This document shows positions 33,983-43,726 of a DNA stretch of 64,000 nt, in pieces. This stretch comes from Nitrosospira multiformis (lineage in GTDB: Bacteria; Pseudomonadota; Gammaproteobacteria; Burkholderiales; Nitrosomonadaceae), in assembly GCA_017306155.1 (NCBI GenBank), contig JAFKJB010000016.1:17382-81381 (forward strand). Direction: 5' to 3'. The notes under the pieces are model-generated. The model worked only from the letters and a program-made list of their open reading frames with translations. It made no database searches and had not been told where the DNA came from. Every line of letters starts with the position of its first letter. The first letter of the stretch is position 1. The position numbers were made by a program, and so were the translations under genes.

Positions 33983-34024
33983 AAAAAAGGCGGGAGCATG
34001 CTCATGCTCCCGCCTTTTTGTTTC
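33983..34024. terminator. Bidirectional rho-independent terminator
   Basis: AAAAAGGCGGGAGCATG-CT-CATGCTCCCGCCTTTTT between convergent htpX and mlaA. Confidence 0.9.
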
Positions 34025-34094
34025 CCGTCAGAATTGACGCATCAGATTCGACAGGCTTTACTTTCTTGTTCCTTGCCCTTATTCCCTGGGTAGT

Positions 34095-34967
34095 TCAAAT
34101 CTCTTCTTCATCCTCCGTATCCTTCGGGGGATTCCCGTCATGCACCAGACTCCGCCGTCTCTGGAGGTAGGCATCACGGATAAACTCGTACTTGTCGAGC
34201 GAAGCTTCTTCCAGAGTCTTCTCGGATTTGAGGAATTCGGCGCGAGTATCTGTAACCCTGGTGGAACCCACTATCGGGCCTATAAAGGGTGCCACGAAAA
34301 AGCTGCCTACAAAAACAGGGTCGGTCACGGTGTCGATGACGCGCCCGCCTGCATCCCGCGCTGAACTGGGTCCGAGGAAGGGCAATACGACATAAGGCCC
34401 GCTTGCGACTCCATAATAGCCCAGGGTTTGCCCAAAATCTTCATTGTGCTTTTCAAACCCGATGCCGCTCGCCAGATCCACGATCCCGGCCAGGCCTAAA
34501 GTGCTGTTCACTACGAACCGGGTGCTGCTGGTGAGTGCATTATTGAATTTAAGCTGCAGAAGGTTGTTCAGCGTGATCGGTATGTCACCGAGGTTCGAGA
34601 ACACGTTTCCCACCGCTGTTTCGAGGGGGTCGGGCATTATCCATCTATAACCCTTTGCGATCGGCCTCATTACATAGTCATCAACCGATTCATTGAATGA
34701 AAATATCTTGCGGTTGACGGGTTCCCACGGATCTTTTTTACTGTAGGGCGGATAACTGGCAGGCGGGGCTGCGTTTTTGAATACGGGTCCCTCGATTGCT
34801 TCTGTTTGCCTGTTGTCATCAACAGAAGCGGTTTTGGCGGTCGAGGCATTCTTCTCTGCGGAGATGCTTCCCTCAGCTGCAGTGTCATTGGCCATGGCTA
34901 CACCGTTAAGGAGATATCCAAGAAGTAACGGCAATAATAGAGGAGAAGGTTTGACGAAGCGTGCCAT
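34095..34967 (-). CDS. mlaA: MlaA/VacJ-family protein lacking a lipobox
   Basis: DPWEPVNR..F.FN, RFVVNSTLGLAG, EDFGQTLG, GPYVVLPFLGPSSARD, DKYEFIRDAYLQRR. Confidence 0.92.
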   Translation of the reverse strand: MARFVKPSPLLLPLLLGYLLNGVAMANDTAAEGSISAEKNASTAKTASVDDNRQTEAIEGPVFKNAAPPASYPPYSKKDPWEPVNRKIFSFNESVDDYVMRPIAKGYRWIMPDPLETAVGNVFSNLGDIPITLNNLLQLKFNNALTSSTRFVVNSTLGLAGIVDLASGIGFEKHNEDFGQTLGYYGVASGPYVVLPFLGPSSARDAGGRVIDTVTDPVFVGSFFVAPFIGPIVGSTRVTDTRAEFLKSEKTLEEASLDKYEFIRDAYLQRRRSLVHDGNPPKDTEDEEEI

Positions 34968-35253
34968 AGTCAAGGTGAATCCTGAGATTAACAGGGAATA
35001 CTTTTCGCCATTATATATGATATAAGGTCAATTTCAAGCAAGAAAACACTTTTTTCTCGCCCCAATCGAGCGGCTTTTTCTGGTATGTTTATTTTTGCTT
35101 CTCCGCTTTACGACGCAGTTTTCGCGATCTTAAGGCTATCTTCTCCACTCTTTTTCCGGCTTGGCGGAAGAGCAACCAAGCCAAAGTTCAGGTAAATGCA
35201 TCCGCGGCATTTGGGGCAGGCCGAAAAGCGCTCGTGTATTCGACCACAATATT

Positions 35254-35925
35254 ATGCGTATCCTGATTATCGAAGATGAGGACAAGACCGTTTCTTTTCT
35301 CAAAAAGGGATTAACCGAATCGGGTTATATCGTCGATGCCTCGATGAATGGCGATGAGGGACTGCTTCTGGCTCTCGACATCGATTATGATTTGATCATT
35401 CTGGACGTAATGCTGCCCGGTCGCGATGGCTGGTCCATTCTCTCGACGCTGCGCCAGATGGGAAAAGAGATGCCGGTGCTTTTCCTCACCGCCAGGGACA
35501 TGGTGCAAGACCGGGTCAAGGGGCTGGAGCTCGGGGCAGATGACTATCTGATCAAGCCTTTTGCATTTTCAGAATTGCTGGCCAGAGTTCGCCTGCTGTT
35601 GCGGCGTACCCCCCAGAGACATCATGACACCTTGCAAATTGCTGATCTGGAGATTGAATTCGCGCGCCAGAAGGCAGTTCGCGGCGGCAATCGCCTCGAT
35701 CTGACGTCCAAGGAATTCGCGCTTCTGTCGCTGCTCATGCGGCGTTCTGGAGAGGTTTTATCCCGGACCTTGATCGCGGAGCAAATCTGGGATATCAATT
35801 TCGACAGTGATACCAATGTCATCGATGTGGCGATACGCCGACTACGCGGCAAGATAGACGATCCATTCGAAAAGAAACTGATCCATACGGTGCGTGGCGT
35901 AGGGTACGTGTTTGAAGATCGATAG
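35254..35925 (+). CDS. Heavy-metal response regulator (CusR/CzcR/CopR-like, OmpR family)
   Basis: LDVMLP receiver, [39 protein letters not shown]; start at ATG 35254. Confidence 0.9.
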
Positions 35926-37330
35926 CCCGCGGAGGGTCGCATCCACATCCAGTCATTCGCACTGGTCGATCACCAGGCAATTGACCTGGCTTTATGCGTT
36001 ATCGGCCTCCGTCATGCTCATCTTCGCTTCAGGATTCCTTTATTGGATTCTCATCACGACACTGGAAAAAGAAGATGAGCAGTTTTTCGACAGACGGATC
36101 AAGTTTCTCGGGCGCCTCTTGCGGGCAGACGATCGGGAAGCCCTGGAACGTGAAATTTCCCAGGAAAATGTCGGATTTACCAACTCCCAGTATCGTACCT
36201 ACAGCCGTATTCTTGATGAATCCGGGATCACTCTTCATGAGACTCCGGGAATGGATCTGGAGACTCCCTCCGCTGTATTTCCCGACTCGCGCGAGTCGAA
36301 AGGCAAGATAAAGAAATGGTATTCTGCTGACGATAAAACCTATTTGCTGGTTGCCAACCGGATAGGAGGCGATGGTTTCGGCTGGCAGATCCAGATGGCA
36401 CTGGATGAGACAGACGAAGAGGTGCTGATCACCCGGTACGAGCACTATTTGGCCGGTGTGCTGTTAACCGGCATTCTGGTATCTGCAGCCATTGGAGCCA
36501 TCATCGCGCGGCGCGGCATGAAGCCCCTGGTAGATATTACCGGAGTTGCTGAACGCATCACGGCCAGCCAGTTACATGAGCGCATCGATGTCGTGCCGTG
36601 GCCTCAGGAACTGGTGTCGCTGGCACGCGCATTCGATGCGATGCTCGATCGGCTGGAAGATTCGTTTGATCGCCTTTTCCAGTTTTCGGCTGATCTGGCG
36701 CATGAGTTGCGCACTCCGATCAATAACCTGCGGGGAGAAGCCGAAGTGGCCCTTTCCAGGCCCCGGGAGGCTCATGAATACCGCGAGATACTTGCATCGA
36801 GTCTCGAGGAGTACGATCGCCTGTCGCGCATGATGGACAGCCTGCTATTCCTGGCCAGGGCCGATAATGCGCAGGCCATGGTTACCCGCAGCCGGATCGA
36901 TGCACGCACGGAAATCACGAAAGTCATCAATTTTTACGAAGCACTGGCTGCGAAACAGAAGGTTCAAGTAACATGCATGGGAGATGGGATGATGGATGCT
37001 GATCCGATTCTTTTTCGAAGAATCATCAGTAACCTGCTTTCAAATGCCCTGCATTACACTCCAGGGGGAGGTGAAATTGCTTTCTCCATCCAATATGTCG
37101 ACGGCGGGCTCGAGGTTGTCTGTCGCGACAGTGGAGAAGGAATCGCGCAGGAACATCTATCGAAAATATTTGATCGCTTTTATCGGGTCAATCCTTCCCG
37201 TAATACGAAAGAAGGCGCGGGACTCGGATTGGCTATCGTAAAATCCATCATCAGTCTTCACAGTGGCAGGATCGGTGTACAAAGCACTATTGGCCAAGGC
37301 ACGTCCATACGGCTTTTCTTTCCGACATAA
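35912..37330 (+). CDS. Heavy-metal sensor histidine kinase (CusS/CzcS-like)
   Basis: Two TMs, [38 protein letters not shown]. Confidence 0.9.
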
Positions 37331-37432
37331 CATCCGTCATAGCCTTCGGTAGTTCTGCTGTAATCAGCTTGTCAACAGGGGATTTTGCATCACTCAATCC
37401 CTGTCGGCTTCAACCCTCAACCGCTTCCTGAA

Positions 37433-37488
37433 CATTACAGATTTGTAATGCCGCCGACATCATTCTGTCAGGATTCCCTTTTTATAAT
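37433..37488 (+). promoter_or_regulatory. Cus/Czc/Cop-type box plus -10 element (promoter copy 1)
   Basis: Palindrome CATTACA-GATT-TGTAATG (ATTAC-N6-GTAAT); TATAAT at 37483-37488. Confidence 0.75.
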
Positions 37489-37539
37489 CTCCGCCTATAA
37501 CCATTAGAATATTGTGGGAATCCAGCGGAGGAAGTCGAG

Positions 37540-37734
37540 GTGACGTTGTTGTCCATCAAGGCACTGCTAGGTGCTGCTGTGATAATCATCAGCTTAGCAA
37601 CTGATTTATTCCACCATTCGTCCGCATTATCAATCGCTCCATCAACCTCATCTTCGTCCATGGCTCAGGAATGTAAACCTCACGTTTCATTTTATTTTGT
37701 TATAAGCAATCTGCATGATCCTCATGCCTACTAA
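37540..37734 (+). CDS. Putative 64-aa small protein (signal-peptide-like N-terminus) or remnant
   Basis: GTG with GGAGG 9 nt upstream, directly after promoter copy 1; no recognised family. Confidence 0.35.
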   Translation: MTLLSIKALLGAAVIIISLATDLFHHSSALSIAPSTSSSSMAQECKPHVSFYFVISNLHDPHAY

Positions 37735-37902
37735 CCGGAGCCTCGAAGCCTATGGCATCAGCAAGATCCCTCTCTATTTTTTCTCCCGCAACGAAGCAGC
37801 AAAGACGGGAAAATTTTGATAATTATTGGGAATTTACCCAGCAACATGGGGGGCAGGCCGCCGATTATTGCAATGCATTACGGAGGGCGGTGAAAATCGC
37901 CA

Positions 37903-39270
37903 GTGACCTTGATTATTGACAGAATAACCCGGGATTTGAGCGGTGCGGCGTGGATCTTCACCCGGTTGCCGAACGACGGTTCGGCGGCAATGTACATCCA
38001 CCGCTGCATTCAGCGCGAGGTCTGGAGCAAGGAAATACTCGGCGATCGGATCATCATGCGCGCGGCGTTGCCGTTCGTGCCGTTCATGCTTGCTGTGCTG
38101 GTAGCGGCTTTCACAGCGATCAATGGTCCCGCTATCAAGAAGCGGACGGGGAAAGGACTGATCCGGCAGATCCGGGAGCAGATCGGGCTTGCGATACGCT
38201 TTGCGATTCCATCTCCGTGGTATTACATTTTCGAACTGCATGACGATGACAAGAGACTGCGCGCAGGGGAGTATCTGAACCGGTTAGAGACGAAAGGGGG
38301 GCTCTATCGCTTCCTGCGCGATAACAATGGTGGCCTCCCTGTTCCTGCGGAACGCAGTACCGGCTCCATAAAGGATAAGATGCGCTTCAGGGTCCGCTGT
38401 CGCGAGCACAGGATCGCGACTGCTCCCGTTTTTTTTTATATCGCCCAGGAAAAGGTTACGGCGGTAGATTGGAGTTCGTCGGAGCCATCGGCACTGCCCG
38501 AATTACCCGAGTGCGATCTTTTCATAAAACCGGTGCACGGTCAGGGCGGGAAAAAGGCCACCCGGTGGGAATATATCGGTTCCGGGCACTTTCGTGGCAA
38601 CGACGGCGGGGTTGCTACCGGAAGTCAAGTGCTGGAGCGGCTGCGGCATGCCTCGCGACACGGGGCTTTCCTCGTGCAGCCGCGGCTTGTGAGTCATCAT
38701 GAGATTGCCGATCTGGCCAGCGGGATACTTTCCACCGTTCGCGTGATGACATGCCGTAACGAAAAGGGGGGGGTCGAAGTGACCAATGCGGCTTTTCGCA
38801 TGGCGCGAAACAAGCGGGTCGTCGTCGATAACTTTCACGCCGGGGGTATTGCCGCCAATGTCGACATTTCCACCGGTACGCTGGGAAGGGGCACGCGCGG
38901 GGCCTGGGGAGCCACAGCTGACGGATGGTATGAGCAACATCCAGAAACCGGGATTCAGATCCAGAATCGCAAGCTGCCGTACTGGGTTGAGTTGATCGAT
39001 CTGGTGCAATATGCGCATGGCGTCGCCTTTTCCGACCAGGTTGTCATCGGATGGGATGTTGCACTGCTCGACAGTGGTCCGTGCATCATGGAAGCCAACA
39101 AGGCGCCCGATCTGGACATTATCCAGCGGGTGGAAGGCATGCCCCTGGGCAATCAGCGACTGGGAAGACTTCTGGCATTCAATCTGATGCGTACCGTCGA
39201 GGCGCAGCAAGCCCTTGCAGTCGGCGCTCGAAAGAGTACCGATCAGCCTTCTGGCATTACAGATTTGTAA
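37903..39270 (+). CDS. Sugar-transfer-associated ATP-grasp protein (start uncertain)
   Basis: IKDK, FIKPVHGQGG, FLVQPRL, STVRVMT, DNFHAGGI, HPETG, GWDVALLDSGPCIMEAN. Confidence 0.8.
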   Translation: MTLIIDRITRDLSGAAWIFTRLPNDGSAAMYIHRCIQREVWSKEILGDRIIMRAALPFVPFMLAVLVAAFTAINGPAIKKRTGKGLIRQIREQIGLAIRFAIPSPWYYIFELHDDDKRLRAGEYLNRLETKGGLYRFLRDNNGGLPVPAERSTGSIKDKMRFRVRCREHRIATAPVFFYIAQEKVTAVDWSSSEPSALPELPECDLFIKPVHGQGGKKATRWEYIGSGHFRGNDGGVATGSQVLERLRHASRHGAFLVQPRLVSHHEIADLASGILSTVRVMTCRNEKGGVEVTNAAFRMARNKRVVVDNFHAGGIAANVDISTGTLGRGTRGAWGATADGWYEQHPETGIQIQNRKLPYWVELIDLVQYAHGVAFSDQVVIGWDVALLDSGPCIMEANKAPDLDIIQRVEGMPLGNQRLGRLLAFNLMRTVEAQQALAVGARKSTDQPSGITDL

Positions 39271-39310
39271 TCCTTGCGACATCATTATGTCAGAATCGCC
39301 TTCTTATACT
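39255..39310 (+). promoter_or_regulatory. Cus/Czc/Cop-type box plus -10 element (promoter copy 2)
   Basis: Same 17-mer CATTACAGATTTGTAAT; TATACT at the same offset; 46/56 ungapped identity to copy 1. Confidence 0.72.
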
Positions 39311-39588
39311 TTTGATGGCTATTAAAAACACGATAACCGATATCGGATATATGCTCCTGGAATTTGAATTGCAATGGAAGGAGTTGGTGTAACGGTATCT
39401 CCGAGCCTCGAAGCAGTTCGCCTTAATGCACTGATCGCTATCGCCTGCGATTAGATTTTTCTGCTTGAGAAGATCGACTATGTCTGCTTGAAGATAACTT
39501 GACAGAAACCTGATTCCTGGCTTGATTCACAGAGAAATTGTGTCGATCAATCGCACCATTCCCGTCACACGAGTAAACAAAATATAAA

Positions 39589-40497
39589 ATGGCCATAGCT
39601 TCTTTCGCCAACCAAGCCAATGTTCCCGATATTGTTCCATCACCGTCGTTTCAGATTGTTGAAGATTCATTAAAAAGATTTTCACTGCCATGTTTTCACG
39701 ATCCCGAACGAGTCGAGGAATATGTTGATTTATTTTCTCTGCGAACGTTGTGTAAAGCATTGGAAGCAGATCGAGCAGAGAGTAAAAACTCTGCGCTCGA
39801 AAAATCTGTCTCTCCGTTTGAGGAAGCGCCCTTTGAACCGAAGTATGATGATTTGTGCCGCCTTCACTGGATCGCGTTAAATCGTAAAGTCATCAACATT
39901 CTCGAGCTTGGCAGCGGTTATAGTACAGTGGTCCTTGCTGATGCGATGCGCATACTTAAAAAACACTTCGGTAACTGGGCCAGGAAATCCATACGTAGCG
40001 ACAATCCCTTTCATGTGTATGCCGTGGAAGAAGAGCAGCGTTTCCTGGAAATCACCAAATTAAGGCTCGGGTCAAAACTTAAAACGCTTGCCACTGTTTC
40101 GCGCAGCTCTGTCGATGTTCTGATTCACGACAATAGGATCGCAAGCGCATATTCAAAACTGCCCAACATATCCCCCGATTTTGTTTATCTCGATGGCCCT
40201 TCCCAGTTCGCTACTACGCAGGAAATAAACGGGTTCTCGTTTAATAGCAAAGCAAGAATGCCAATGTCCGCAGATATTCTGCGAATTGAGTTTTTTTTAG
40301 AACCGGGCACGCTTATTCTGATGGACGGCAGAACTGCTAACGCTCGTTTCTTGAAATCTTATCTACGTCGAAACTGGGCCTACCTGCATGACCCGATCGG
40401 AGATATTCATTGCTTTGAACTGCAGGAAGAACCGCTTGGACCTTTTAATAGGCTGAAGCTTGAATTCTGCCTAAATGGAAACTGGCTTATCAGCTAA
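39589..40497 (+). CDS. Class I SAM-methyltransferase-like protein
   Basis: ILELGSGYST, DFVYLDGP, PGTLILMDGR; AT-richer than flanks. Confidence 0.6.
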   Translation: MAIASFANQANVPDIVPSPSFQIVEDSLKRFSLPCFHDPERVEEYVDLFSLRTLCKALEADRAESKNSALEKSVSPFEEAPFEPKYDDLCRLHWIALNRKVINILELGSGYSTVVLADAMRILKKHFGNWARKSIRSDNPFHVYAVEEEQRFLEITKLRLGSKLKTLATVSRSSVDVLIHDNRIASAYSKLPNISPDFVYLDGPSQFATTQEINGFSFNSKARMPMSADILRIEFFLEPGTLILMDGRTANARFLKSYLRRNWAYLHDPIGDIHCFELQEEPLGPFNRLKLEFCLNGNWLIS

Positions 40498-40507
40498 ATC
40501 ATCCACT

Positions 40508-41908
40508 ATGAGAAATTCCGCTTCAACCCTCATTATCCCTGTCGAAAATCAGGTGCGCGAGCTGGACGGAAAGCTTCTGCTGTCCTGTGTAGCTGCAGAG
40601 CGCGGCTTTCCGGTGATTATTGGTTCACGTGCGTTCATTCATTTCGAGGCGGCGTCATTTCCACGGGGTGTGTACTTGGCGAAGAGCATGCGCAGTCTGA
40701 GCAATTCGATGTTCAGGATTCTGCGCATGCTGGGGCATGAGATTGTGGCATGGGAAGAAGAGGCGTTGGTTCATCCCCCGGCCGAAACCTATTTCAACCT
40801 GCGGCTGTCACCGACGACGATCAGTAATGTGTCCCACATATTCGCCTGGGGTTATGAGAACTTCGATTTGCTCCAGCAATATCCGCAACTGCCCAAAAAA
40901 CTATCTATTCACATTACTGGAAATCCACGCGGAGATATATTGCGGCCAGAAATGCGACCCTACTTCGACGCGGAGGTAGAAAAACTCCATAAACTTTATG
41001 GGGATTTCATTCTTGTTAATACCAATTTCACCGAGGTAAATCCCTTTATTCCCAGTATTGGCTTATTCGTTCCAACAAAAGACGGGCATAAGACGTCCCG
41101 ACGTGGTCAAGCCGGAATTGGAGTGAGCCGTGAATTTGCCGAAGGACTCTGGAATCATAAACAAGCAATACTGGAAGATTTCAAGCAGCTCATTCCGGCC
41201 CTCGAGCAGGCTTTCCCCCATCTGATGATCGTAGTCCGGCCGCATCCAAGTGAAAATTTCAAGGTGTACAACGATATTGCCGCAAGATGCAAGCGGGTCA
41301 AAGTCATTAATGAAGGCAACGTTATTCCCTGGCTTCTGGCTTCGAAGACAATGATACATAACGGGTGTACAACGGGCTTGGAGGCGTATGCGCTTGGGGT
41401 ACCGGCCATATCATATCTTTCCACATTCAATGAATTCTATGATTATGACTTCCAGGGCCTTCCCACCAAGCTAAGTTATCAGTCTTTCAATTTTGAAGAA
41501 TTACAGAACACTTTGACTGGAATTCTTGAGGGTAAGCTCGGTCCCCCCGGAGGTGAGGAACGCAAGACGCTCATCGATTACTATCTGGCGGCCCGGAATG
41601 AGCGTCTGGCTTGCGAGCGTATTGTCGATATCCTCGAGGATAGCGGCTATGCTGAAAACCAGCCACCCGCCACATCCGTGGGAACATATGCCCAAGGATG
41701 GGCGTTCGCGAAGTTAAAGGCTTCTATCACGAAACTGAACATGCGGCGTCCCGGCCCGAACAGGCTTTCATATCACGATCATCGTTTTCCCCAGCTCTCT
41801 GCCACGGAGATTGAGAAGAAAATTGCACAGTTTGGTCGCCTATTGAATCGTTTCGGCAATATTCGCGTTGAACAATACTCAAAACATCTATTCAGAATCC
41901 ATGGTTAG
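40508..41908 (+). CDS. Surface carbohydrate biosynthesis protein (GT-B-like)
   Basis: PVENQVRELDGKLLL, ITGNPRGDILR, VVRPHPSE, IHNGCTTGLEA; start at ATG 40508. Confidence 0.7.
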   Translation: MRNSASTLIIPVENQVRELDGKLLLSCVAAERGFPVIIGSRAFIHFEAASFPRGVYLAKSMRSLSNSMFRILRMLGHEIVAWEEEALVHPPAETYFNLRLSPTTISNVSHIFAWGYENFDLLQQYPQLPKKLSIHITGNPRGDILRPEMRPYFDAEVEKLHKLYGDFILVNTNFTEVNPFIPSIGLFVPTKDGHKTSRRGQAGIGVSREFAEGLWNHKQAILEDFKQLIPALEQAFPHLMIVVRPHPSENFKVYNDIAARCKRVKVINEGNVIPWLLASKTMIHNGCTTGLEAYALGVPAISYLSTFNEFYDYDFQGLPTKLSYQSFNFEELQNTLTGILEGKLGPPGGEERKTLIDYYLAARNERLACERIVDILEDSGYAENQPPATSVGTYAQGWAFAKLKASITKLNMRRPGPNRLSYHDHRFPQLSATEIEKKIAQFGRLLNRFGNIRVEQYSKHLFRIHG

Positions 41909-42050
41909 CGGCTCTCTAAAGCGTGCCCTTGGCATTCTTTTCAAAAAATTTTTCTAATCTCCATGAGGGTAGGAGCCCCAGCCAATGAGTGCGTGAACTT
42001 GATATTTATCGAGTTGAGCCAGGGATAAAATTATGTAGAATCCCATCCAT

Positions 42051-42106
42051 GGCAGTCGCTTCGATCTGACATCCAAAGAATTCAATTTCTATCGCTGTTC
42101 ATGCGG
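42051..42106 (+). pseudogene. 56-bp relic of the heavy-metal response regulator gene
   Basis: Manual alignment to 35686-35742: 47/57 identical with one gap. Confidence 0.75.
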
Positions 42107-42190
42107 GTGCACGGAACCCTGCTGAATTGAATTTATCCACGGATCAAAGAACGGGACTTCCGGATGAAGTCTGAGAGACTGCTGTTTTTC

Positions 42191-43726
42191 CTATGCAGCG
42201 CGCCGGGAGAAATCCTTGAGGCGAAAACCGAGCAGCCATAAGGTGACAAAGTAGCTTGCCGCACCGATTGTCACGACTCCTGCCAGGCGTATCCCTCGCA
42301 CTGCCGCCGTATCCGTCAGCCACGAAACATCAGTGCCCGAAGCAAACCATAATATAGTCCCCATCATCGCCAGGGCCACCGATATCTTGGTCATAAAAAT
42401 GCCCCATCCCGGTTGAGGCCGGTAAATCTGGTGGCGCCGTAATTTGTAATAGAGCATGCCCGCATTGATACAGGCGCCCAGTCCAATGGCAAGCGCCAAC
42501 CCGGCGTGTTGCAGCGGTATGATAAAGGCGAGGTTCATCAACTGGGTTGCGATAAGTGTGATAAGGGCTATTTTTACCGGTGTCTTGATGTTTTGCCTTG
42601 CGTAGAAACCAGGTGCCAGCACTTTCACCAGAATCAGCCCCAGCAGGCCCACGCTGTATGCCATGAGGGCATTGCGTGTCATCCAGACATCGTTGGCCGA
42701 GAATTCGCCGTGATGAAACAGTGTCGTGATAAGCGGTGTGGCAAGCAGCGCCAGCGCCAGCGCTGCGGGCAGTGTCAGCAGCATGGTCAGGCGCAGACCC
42801 CAGTCAAGCAGTCGGGAATATTCATCCGTGCTGTTGTCGGCATAGTGTCGCGACAAGGACGGCAGCAGGACCGTCCCGAGTGCCACACCCAGCAGGCCGG
42901 CGGGAAACTCCATTAACCGATCCGCATAATAGAGCCAGGAAACGCTGCCTGTGACAAGAAAGGAAGCAAATATCGTATTGATCAACAGGCTGATCTGCCC
43001 GATGGACATGCCGAAAACTGCTGGTACCATTTGCTTGAGAACGCGCGACGCGCCATTGTCGGGGGATTTCAGGCGTGGGCGCGGCATCAATTTGAGGCGC
43101 ATGAGGAACGGTATCTGGAAGGCAAGCTGGAGTACGCCGCCGATGAATACCGCCCACGCCAGCGCCAGTACTGGGGGGTCCATGAGTGGCGCCAGCCATA
43201 GCGAACAGCCGATAAACGACAGGTTGAGCAGGGCCGGGGTCAGCGCAGGTACCGAAAATCTGCTCCAGGTGTTGAGTATGCCGCCAGCCAGCGACACGAG
43301 CGAGATGAACAGGATATAGGGAAACGTGATCCGCAGCAGTTCCACCGTAAGCTCGAATTTCTCGGGACTTGCCGTGAATCCTGGTGCACTTACATAGATG
43401 ACCAGCGGCGCCGCAATAACGCCTGCCAGCGTGACCCCGAATAGCGCAATGAACAGCAGTGTTGCGACGTGACTTATCAGTTCGCGCGTATCTTCGGCGG
43501 CGCGGCGATTCTTGTATTCGGCAAGTATGGGTACGAAGGCTTGCGAAAACGCTCCCTCGGCGAACAGACGGCGCAACAGGTTGGGGATGCGGAATGCCAC
43601 AAAAAAAGCGTCGGTTTCGACGCCCGCGCCAAAAATACGGGCAATGATGGCATCCCGCACAAATCCCAGAATGCGGGATATGAACGTCATCCCGCTGACG
43701 GTGACAAGGGCTTTGAGCAGATTCAT
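42191..43726 (-). CDS. murJ: Lipid II flippase MurJ
   Basis: SRILGFVRD, FRIPNLLRRLFAEGAFSQAFVP, YYADRLMEFP; start at ATG 43726. Confidence 0.97.
   Translation of the reverse strand: MNLLKALVTVSGMTFISRILGFVRDAIIARIFGAGVETDAFFVAFRIPNLLRRLFAEGAFSQAFVPILAEYKNRRAAEDTRELISHVATLLFIALFGVTLAGVIAAPLVIYVSAPGFTASPEKFELTVELLRITFPYILFISLVSLAGGILNTWSRFSVPALTPALLNLSFIGCSLWLAPLMDPPVLALAWAVFIGGVLQLAFQIPFLMRLKLMPRPRLKSPDNGASRVLKQMVPAVFGMSIGQISLLINTIFASFLVTGSVSWLYYADRLMEFPAGLLGVALGTVLLPSLSRHYADNSTDEYSRLLDWGLRLTMLLTLPAALALALLATPLITTLFHHGEFSANDVWMTRNALMAYSVGLLGLILVKVLAPGFYARQNIKTPVKIALITLIATQLMNLAFIIPLQHAGLALAIGLGACINAGMLYYKLRRHQIYRPQPGWGIFMTKISVALAMMGTILWFASGTDVSWLTDTAAVRGIRLAGVVTIGAASYFVTLWLLGFRLKDFSRRAA

Follow-up and report, generated by a model that had tools for sequence, protein, structure and literature searches.

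A recurrent 56-bp putative promoter module beside a heavy-metal-type two-component system in Nitrosospira multiformis

Pho-box promoters, which depend on PhoB, an activator of the OmpR/PhoB family, carry hexamers phased by 11 bp that replace the -35 element and end about 10 bp before the -10 element. PmrAB/BasRS, a two-component system related to metal sensors, controls a small outer-membrane and surface-modification regulon via one shared box. Here, we analyzed a stretch of 64,000 nucleotides (nt) from Nitrosospira multiformis (assembly GCA_017306155.1, contig JAFKJB010000016.1, positions 17,382 to 81,381; hereafter the window), in which a heavy-metal-type two-component system is followed by two copies of a 56-bp element, at 37433-37488 and 39255-39310. 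An earlier note, made from the letters of this stretch, had described the two copies as twin promoters bracketing an ATP-grasp gene. A close parallel is found in Pseudomonas paraeruginosa, where the regulators CusR, CopR and CzcR all bind one palindrome, as established by electrophoretic mobility shift assays, DNA affinity purification sequencing and promoter mutation (PMC11195947).

The CusR/CopR/CzcR site is published as ATTACATnnATGTAAT and also printed as ATTCATnnATGTAAT, with ATTACATnnATAGCCT as its mutant, and the consensus sites of CopR and CzcR end in GTAAT (PMC11195947). A literature search on copper two-component regulation in Nitrosospira returned nothing relevant. We describe the architecture and conservation of the 56-bp element, its link to the two-component system and the genes behind it, and from these we infer how it may be bound and activated, where transcripts may start and what may induce it. 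Judging from sequence comparison, both window copies are quite probably regulator-activated sigma-70 promoters lacking a -35 element and driven by the adjoining regulator of the CopR/CusR/CzcR family. The core of the earlier reading, namely two promoters with a CopR/CzcR-type operator and selection on both, is thereby supported. This is an ordinary, well-known kind of switch, the mildly surprising part being that its targets are envelope and surface-sugar genes rather than metal-resistance genes.

Architecture and conservation of the module

The two copies align without gaps at 46 of 56 positions, a value from the earlier note that our recomputation reproduced, and a repeat search of the window returned 37433-37486 against 39255-39308 at 83% over 54 nt. 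About 5e-9 pairs of this quality (46/56) are expected by chance per 64 kb. The likeness ends at the 56-bp edges, the 40 nt on the 5′ side of the two copies being unrelated. Both copies open with the 16-mer CATTACAGATTTGTAAT, which has two exact occurrences in the window (0.26 expected at up to three mismatches), and both contain the palindrome ATTACAGATTTGTAAT, at 37434 and 39256. Module a (37433-37488, plus strand; P_a) comprises the palindrome at 37434-37449, CGACATC-N4-TGTCAG at 37455-37471 and TATAAT at 37483-37488, with a predicted start near 37495. Module b (39255-39310, plus strand; P_b) has the palindrome at 39256-39271, CGACATC-N4-TGTCAG at 39277-39293 and TATACT at 39305-39310, with a predicted start near 39317. 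The shared box, and the -10 element 50 nt from its first base, are thus present in both copies as the note had it. Its matching of ATTAC-N6-GTAAT to described CzcR/CopR-type operators also holds, half-sites and spacing being equal to those of the published Pseudomonas site (PMC11195947).

The window is part of one contig (C23) of a 3.0-Mb assembly (genome G000). A position matrix was built from 20 modules, this genome's own four included, and used to scan the genome, a check that the note had proposed. Exactly four sites were found, at 78-88 bits, P_a scoring 86.6 bits and P_b 85.8 bits with a matrix that includes both; everything else scored at most 12 bits and the reversed-sequence control was empty. 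The two additional complete 56-bp units are located on contig C16, where one faces an MlaA-paralog gene (PF04333) followed by a weakly arginase-like gene, and the other faces a short glpM-like open reading frame (ORF), a GNAT/FemAB-like gene and two small EamA-family genes. The promoter reading is supported by the comparison, whereas the notion of a twin pair is not: P_a and P_b, which fall into different orthologous classes, are members of a set of four putative regulon promoters. A search for more boxes gave two candidates that were rejected as chance, one at C11:21288 (GTTTCAGATTTGTAAT), within a 577-amino acid (aa) lipoxygenase-like ORF, and a weak one at C19:176163.

Twenty-one copies from 11 genomes gave the consensus cATTACAnATTTGTAAT-N5-CGnCATC-N4-CGTCAGnAT-N2-CCT-N3-TATAnT, with invariant spacing and unrelated flanks. 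Conservation peaks at both half-sites of the palindrome, at CGnCAT (positions 23-28), at CGTCAG (34-39) and at the A and T positions of the -10 element; the second element is conserved as strongly as the palindrome. The spacers vary, as do positions 28-33, where a -35 hexamer would sit, and no -35 element is recognizable; a scan with the sigma-70 consensus called neither window module because the modules lack this element. TGTAAT, CGnCAT and CGTCAG begin at positions 12, 23 and 34, that is in steps of 11 bp, and the -10 element occupies positions 51-56; the 11-bp periodicity of the conservation itself is weak (autocorrelation about 0.18-0.19 at lags 10-11). The second inverted motif of the note, GACA-N6-TGTC, does exist in both window copies, but this form is particular to the present genome. 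The other copies mostly have CGTCAG, several have CGCCATC, and the form conserved over the 21 modules is CGnCATC-N4-CGTCAG. In all downstream stretches examined, an ORF oriented like the module follows, and most of these ORFs are identified genes.

The likeness of the window copies might come from a recent local duplication, or the copies might be scars of the recombination that inserted an ATP-grasp cassette, without a function today. Such an origin would suit the intervening DNA, which is a patchwork of a glpM remnant, a fragment 97.6% identical to contig C17 and an ATP-grasp gene with a paralog elsewhere, and it would suit the entry of the ATP-grasp frame into module b. Yet each copy is nearer to a module of another species than to its twin: copy a is closest to the module after the kinase gene of genome G015 (51/56) and copy b to the module before the methyltransferase-like gene of genome G009 (49/56), the a-b identity of 46/56 falling in the range for any two modules (44-48). 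The flanks have no similarity, and the ten a/b mismatches avoid the conserved columns, with a mean of 0.56 versus 1.27 bits (permutation p=3e-5; column information taken from modules of other genomes only). The note had likewise placed the mismatches mostly outside the motifs and proposed selection on both copies. Because the mismatches sit in weakly conserved columns, the likeness of the copies is best read as constraint and not recency, with no recent local duplication, and we give very little credence to duplication or scars.

A small mobile repeat, of the miniature inverted-repeat transposable element kind, or an integrase attachment site would account for the several copies per genome, their patchy presence in the genus and the rearrangements around them. 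It would leave unexplained that the modules have neither terminal inverted repeats nor target-site duplications, that no integrase is nearby (no recombinase gene was found among the neighboring ORFs), that only 56 bp are conserved, with peaks at the half-sites and the -10 element, and that orientation to the next gene is fixed. We regard this origin as highly improbable.

The adjoining two-component system and the proposed mechanism

The response regulator gene (35254-35925, plus strand) belongs to the heavy-metal (CopR/CusR/CzcR) subfamily, matching TIGR01387 at 343.7 bits for a cut-off of 279.2, and the heavy-metal-type sensor histidine kinase gene (35912-37330, plus strand) matches TIGR01386 at 408.2 bits for a cut-off of 292.55, both cut-offs being the curated ones of NCBIfam. 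The DNA-binding domain of PcoR (2jzy) matches the regulator at E=1e-34. According to tblastn searches of the whole assembly, this is the sole heavy-metal-type regulator-kinase pair, the next regulators being at most 38% identical; several other OmpR-family regulators are encoded in the genome.

Within the genus, the module was detected in 11 of 43 genomes (reversed-pattern control, 0). Kinase orthologs occur in seven of the 37 genomes tested for both features, and the module occurs in all seven (kinase versus module, table 7,3 / 0,27; Fisher test, p=1.2e-5). In the six other genomes the kinase orthologs occur at 65-90% identity, each with a module just downstream; in the six mapped relatives (G009, G010, G015, G017, G020 and G021) the module lies 100-170 nt 3′ of the kinase gene, and in the window module a lies 103 nt past the kinase stop codon. 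The kinase ortholog of G015 (C71:878-1919) is split by an in-frame TGA, which may denote a pseudogene or a sequencing error; its module and glpM gene are intact.

Related layouts also occur outside the genus, and two findings there link the module to true metal regulons. When 401 genomes of the order were scanned with a pattern, the palindrome together with GTCAT/GTCAG-type repeats came up in a further 17 genomes, spread over 13 genera (reversed-pattern control, 0). Among the genes behind it are a multicopper oxidase for copper resistance (TIGR01480, 703.7 bits) and CopI, besides outer-membrane subunits of efflux systems and regulators of the heavy-metal type, and the second-element variants in these genera have GTCAT-like letters that resemble the E. 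coli CusR half-site. A metagenome-assembled genome from another betaproteobacterial family (L045, JANYAU010000022.1, 3343-9433) encodes a related system (regulator 84% and kinase 55-78% identical) with the same module about 75 nt past the kinase gene; the operon that begins about 35 nt after the -10 element encodes an outer-membrane factor, an adaptor and a CusA/CzcA-type pump. The difference in family suggests that the system may have been transferred horizontally together with its promoter. Genes for metal efflux or detoxification stand behind the module in these relatives outside the genus and not in the present genome.

In the mechanism that we propose, a signal would lead the kinase to phosphorylate the regulator, a dimer of which would occupy the palindrome ATTACA-N4-TGTAAT, centered about 53.5 nt before a start set 7 nt past the -10 element. 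CGnCAT-N5-CGTCAG, at the place of a -35 element, would most likely comprise two weaker half-sites of this regulator, as suggested by its geometry and by the GTCAT-like variants elsewhere, and extra regulator molecules on both hexamers would recruit RNA polymerase to the conserved TATAnT -10 element. P_a would then transcribe a leader of gene remnants followed by the ATP-grasp gene, and P_b the methyltransferase-like and surface-carbohydrate genes; given read-through, P_b would be an internal booster for both. The C16 modules would serve the MlaA-paralog operon and the operon comprising the glpM-like ORF, the FemAB-GNAT-like gene and the two EamA genes, and the genome's four promoters would be switched on jointly.

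We favor the same regulator for both parts of the module because the GTCAT-like letters found elsewhere resemble the E. coli CusR half-site. Alternatively, the module could integrate two inputs, the neighboring regulator binding the palindrome only and another protein, for instance of the OmpR/PhoB family, covering the -35 position at CGnCAT-N5-CGTCAG. The geometry is that of a pho box, with two hexamers in an 11-bp step, the second ending 11 bp upstream of the -10 element, and both the strong conservation of the element and the presence of other OmpR-family regulators would fit. However, a matrix of the second element found no match in the whole genome besides the four modules, the next best hits being at background level, so that a second regulator would be left without other targets; GTCAT-type variants of the element accompany the palindrome before cop and czc genes in other genera; and the region 5′ of a pstS-like gene differs. 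A separate global regulator such as PhoB is disfavored because the second element is confined to the four modules, and PhoB as its ligand, tried as a candidate, found no support in the pstS-like upstream region or in the genome scan. Two inputs are, overall, unlikely. As a side observation, the region 5′ of the pstS-like gene on C16 has a possible pho box, ATGTCACAAAAACGTAAT, about 70 nt before the frame opens at 135388; the box is phased by 11 bp and its second half resembles the GTAAT half-site.

The same operator could also serve repression, the promoters being constitutive and shut off by a bound regulator acting as a repressor or roadblock. CopR represses one Pseudomonas promoter through the same palindrome (PMC11195947), the -10 element is near consensus, and protein bound to the conserved element over the -35 position could exclude RNA polymerase. 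The lack of a recognizable -35 element and the poor conservation of positions 28-33 are, in contrast, typical of activator-dependent promoters, and the palindrome lies 5′ of the predicted core promoter. We therefore hold repression to be quite unlikely and retain activation by the adjoining regulator.

Several points weigh against activation by this regulator at all four modules. Neither a module nor a box was found 5′ of the regulator gene by matrix scan and by inspection of 34974-35253, unlike in many autoregulated Cus/Cop systems. Three genomes carry the module with no kinase detected, two of them being 65% and 83% complete and the third having a kinase-like fragment at a contig edge. Metal-homeostasis genes lie behind none of the genome's four modules (0/4), and the signal may not be metal. 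Long leaders precede the first genes, of about 410 nt for the ATP-grasp gene, 279 nt for the methyltransferase-like gene and about 590 nt for the MlaA paralog. Finally, the role given to the second element derives solely from geometry and from GTCAT-like variants in other genera.

Genes behind the modules and the DNA between the copies

The leader behind P_a opens with a 5′ remnant of a gene for a GlpM-family membrane protein (37540-37600, plus strand), in which about 20 codons, MTLLSIKALLGAAVIIISLA, match the start of intact glpM-like genes before the sequence diverges. Intact glpM-like genes (PF06942) stand behind the module in G010 and G015 and share their first 20 residues with a 64-aa ORF of the window (37540-37734), and 37424-37598 is 72% identical to the module and glpM-like 5′ end at C16:116207-116038. 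On this comparison, the 64-aa ORF is taken as a glpM-like remnant and not as a real gene. GlpM-family ORFs behind modules are remnant or truncated in this genome, whereas the intact gene lies behind the module in relatives.

The remnant is followed by an imported fragment (37686-37855, plus strand) that comprises the 5′ untranslated region and first 35 codons of a gene for a 297-aa protein and is 97.6% identical to C17:19024-18855; the gene is intact at C17:18958-18065 on the minus strand. A 55-aa ORF (37752-37919) can accordingly be assigned, by sequence match, as a remnant of this C17 gene, and both short ORFs drop out as peptide candidates, being gene remnants. Homologs of the 297-aa gene occupy the same position in G033 and G009, the order in G033 being module, the same glpM remnant and then the homolog. 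The 12-mer GAGCCTCGAAGC that the earlier note found shared between 37738 and 39403 is real at both places. Its copy at 37738 lies within the 170-bp fragment copied from C17, where it reads GAGCCCCGAAGC, with one base different, and we treat it as chance because, by our arithmetic, 5 kb of sequence should contain about 0.75 exact pairs of 12-mers.

The ATP-grasp gene (37903-39270, plus strand) encodes a ligase of the type associated with sugar transfer (PF14397, 6.8e-35), and G033 has the gene order module, glpM, ATP-grasp. As the note had pointed out, copy 2 overlaps the end of this gene, the TAA of ORF 37903-39270 falling within TGTAAT of module b. The homologs (G033 and a C16 paralog) end 7 residues past a conserved TVE(A/T), whereas the window protein has about 17 extra terminal residues that run into module b. 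Because these last residues are not conserved in the homologs, the overlap is read as a junction artefact, a by-product of rearrangement with no designed coupling. The ATP-grasp paralog on C16 (49718-50996; 68.7% nucleotide identity) has no module; together with another copy of the end of the TIGR04396 gene described below (C16:42590-42670), it suggests a second surface-carbohydrate cluster.

The first gene behind P_b (39589-40497, plus strand) encodes a 302-aa protein that is weakly methyltransferase-like (PF13578 at 1e-3, below cut-off), orthologs of which stand behind the module in G009, G010, G021 and G033. The second (40475-41908, plus strand) encodes a surface carbohydrate biosynthesis protein (TIGR04396, 427.9 bits for a cut-off of 125). 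Between this gene and murJ lies a regulator-gene relic (42051-42106), 57 nt of the C-terminal part, 82% identical to 35686-35742 and on the same strand, which marks an old rearrangement at the right edge of the island. In the P_b leader, a near-perfect palindrome, ATAACCGATATCGGATAT, at 39333-39350 (about 16-33 nt past the predicted start) has no conserved counterpart in the leader copy on C16.

On C16, 110996-111296 joins a P_b-type module and the 20 nt downstream of it (76 matching nt together) to the final 119 nt of the TIGR04396 gene region. By its sequence, this is best described as an internally deleted copy of the P_b operon, now placed before the MlaA paralog. In G009 and G033, the MlaA-paralog gene has a module of a different class than on C16. 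Module targets in relatives also include a secreted SRPBCC lipid-binding protein and a DUF1232 protein. The targets are themselves accessory genes and largely accompany the module; of the 43 genomes, 5 have the FemAB-like gene and 7 the methyltransferase-like gene. The modules would define an accessory envelope regulon in about a quarter of Nitrosospira species.

No Rfam match was obtained for 34000-43000 at E≤1. Predicted folds of two RNA segments, the kinase-P_a spacer and the P_b leader, were no better than those of shuffled sequence (z = -0.03 and -0.96) and hence give no evidence of a terminator or riboswitch. A terminator-like hairpin at 39431-39454 was set aside as within chance expectation. 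Since neither the interval from the kinase gene to P_a nor the DNA past the ATP-grasp gene has a convincing terminator, read-through is possible at both places.

A wider scenario can be offered tentatively, as one that we hold to be possible and rather less likely than its negation. In a subset of Nitrosospira species, a horizontally acquired Cus/Czc-type system would have lost its efflux target, and the 56-bp cassette would have spread by recombination and captured an envelope-remodeling regulon for the handling of outer-membrane lipids and the making of surface carbohydrates, with an ATP-grasp ligase besides, so that a metal signal, plausibly copper, reshapes the surface. The cassette itself would act as a recombination substrate, and three observations fit this: P_b and its leader stand before the MlaA paralog, gene remnants stand behind P_a, and a regulator-gene relic lies at 42051-42106. 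If this were true, metal would remodel the surface of an ammonia oxidizer instead of being pumped out.

Significance and comparison with known systems

With the module, a precise cis-element that can be tested and a putative regulon of four promoters are available for the sole heavy-metal-type sensor system of this ammonia oxidizer. A regulator family whose presence is usually taken to indicate metal resistance may be connected to envelope genes, and an annotation as "CopRS/CzcRS" does not here imply copper or zinc efflux. The finding also bears on the surface responses of ammonia oxidizers, whose key enzyme needs copper.

PmrAB/BasRS differs from the present system in regulator subfamily and in box, and the Nitrosospira targets are not arn or ept genes. 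With the pho box, the second element shares two direct repeats 11 bp apart in place of a -35 element; it agrees with CTGTCAT at 4-6 of 7 positions, but occurs only with the palindrome and not at Pho genes.

The E. coli CusR box, as cited in the Pseudomonas study (PMC11195947), is AAAATGACAAnnTTGTCATTTT. It resembles the Nitrosospira element in being an inverted repeat of the TGTCAT/TGTAAT type, recognized by a heavy-metal regulator of the OmpR family and adjoining the two-component operon. The half-site is GTCAT in E. coli and GTAAT here, and the E. coli regulator has essentially one chromosomal target, the efflux operon cusCFBA.

With the pcoA2-cusR intergenic palindrome of P. paraeruginosa IHMA87 (PMC11195947), the likeness extends to the ATTACA-N4-TGTAAT half-sites and their spacing, the position 5′ of a core promoter (a predicted one in Nitrosospira), a regulator of the TIGR01387 subfamily and the use of one type of site for several promoters. 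The Nitrosospira palindrome differs in being fixed to an extra 17-bp element and a -10 element, in four copies, which stand in front of envelope genes instead of pco or cus genes, with none before the regulator gene.

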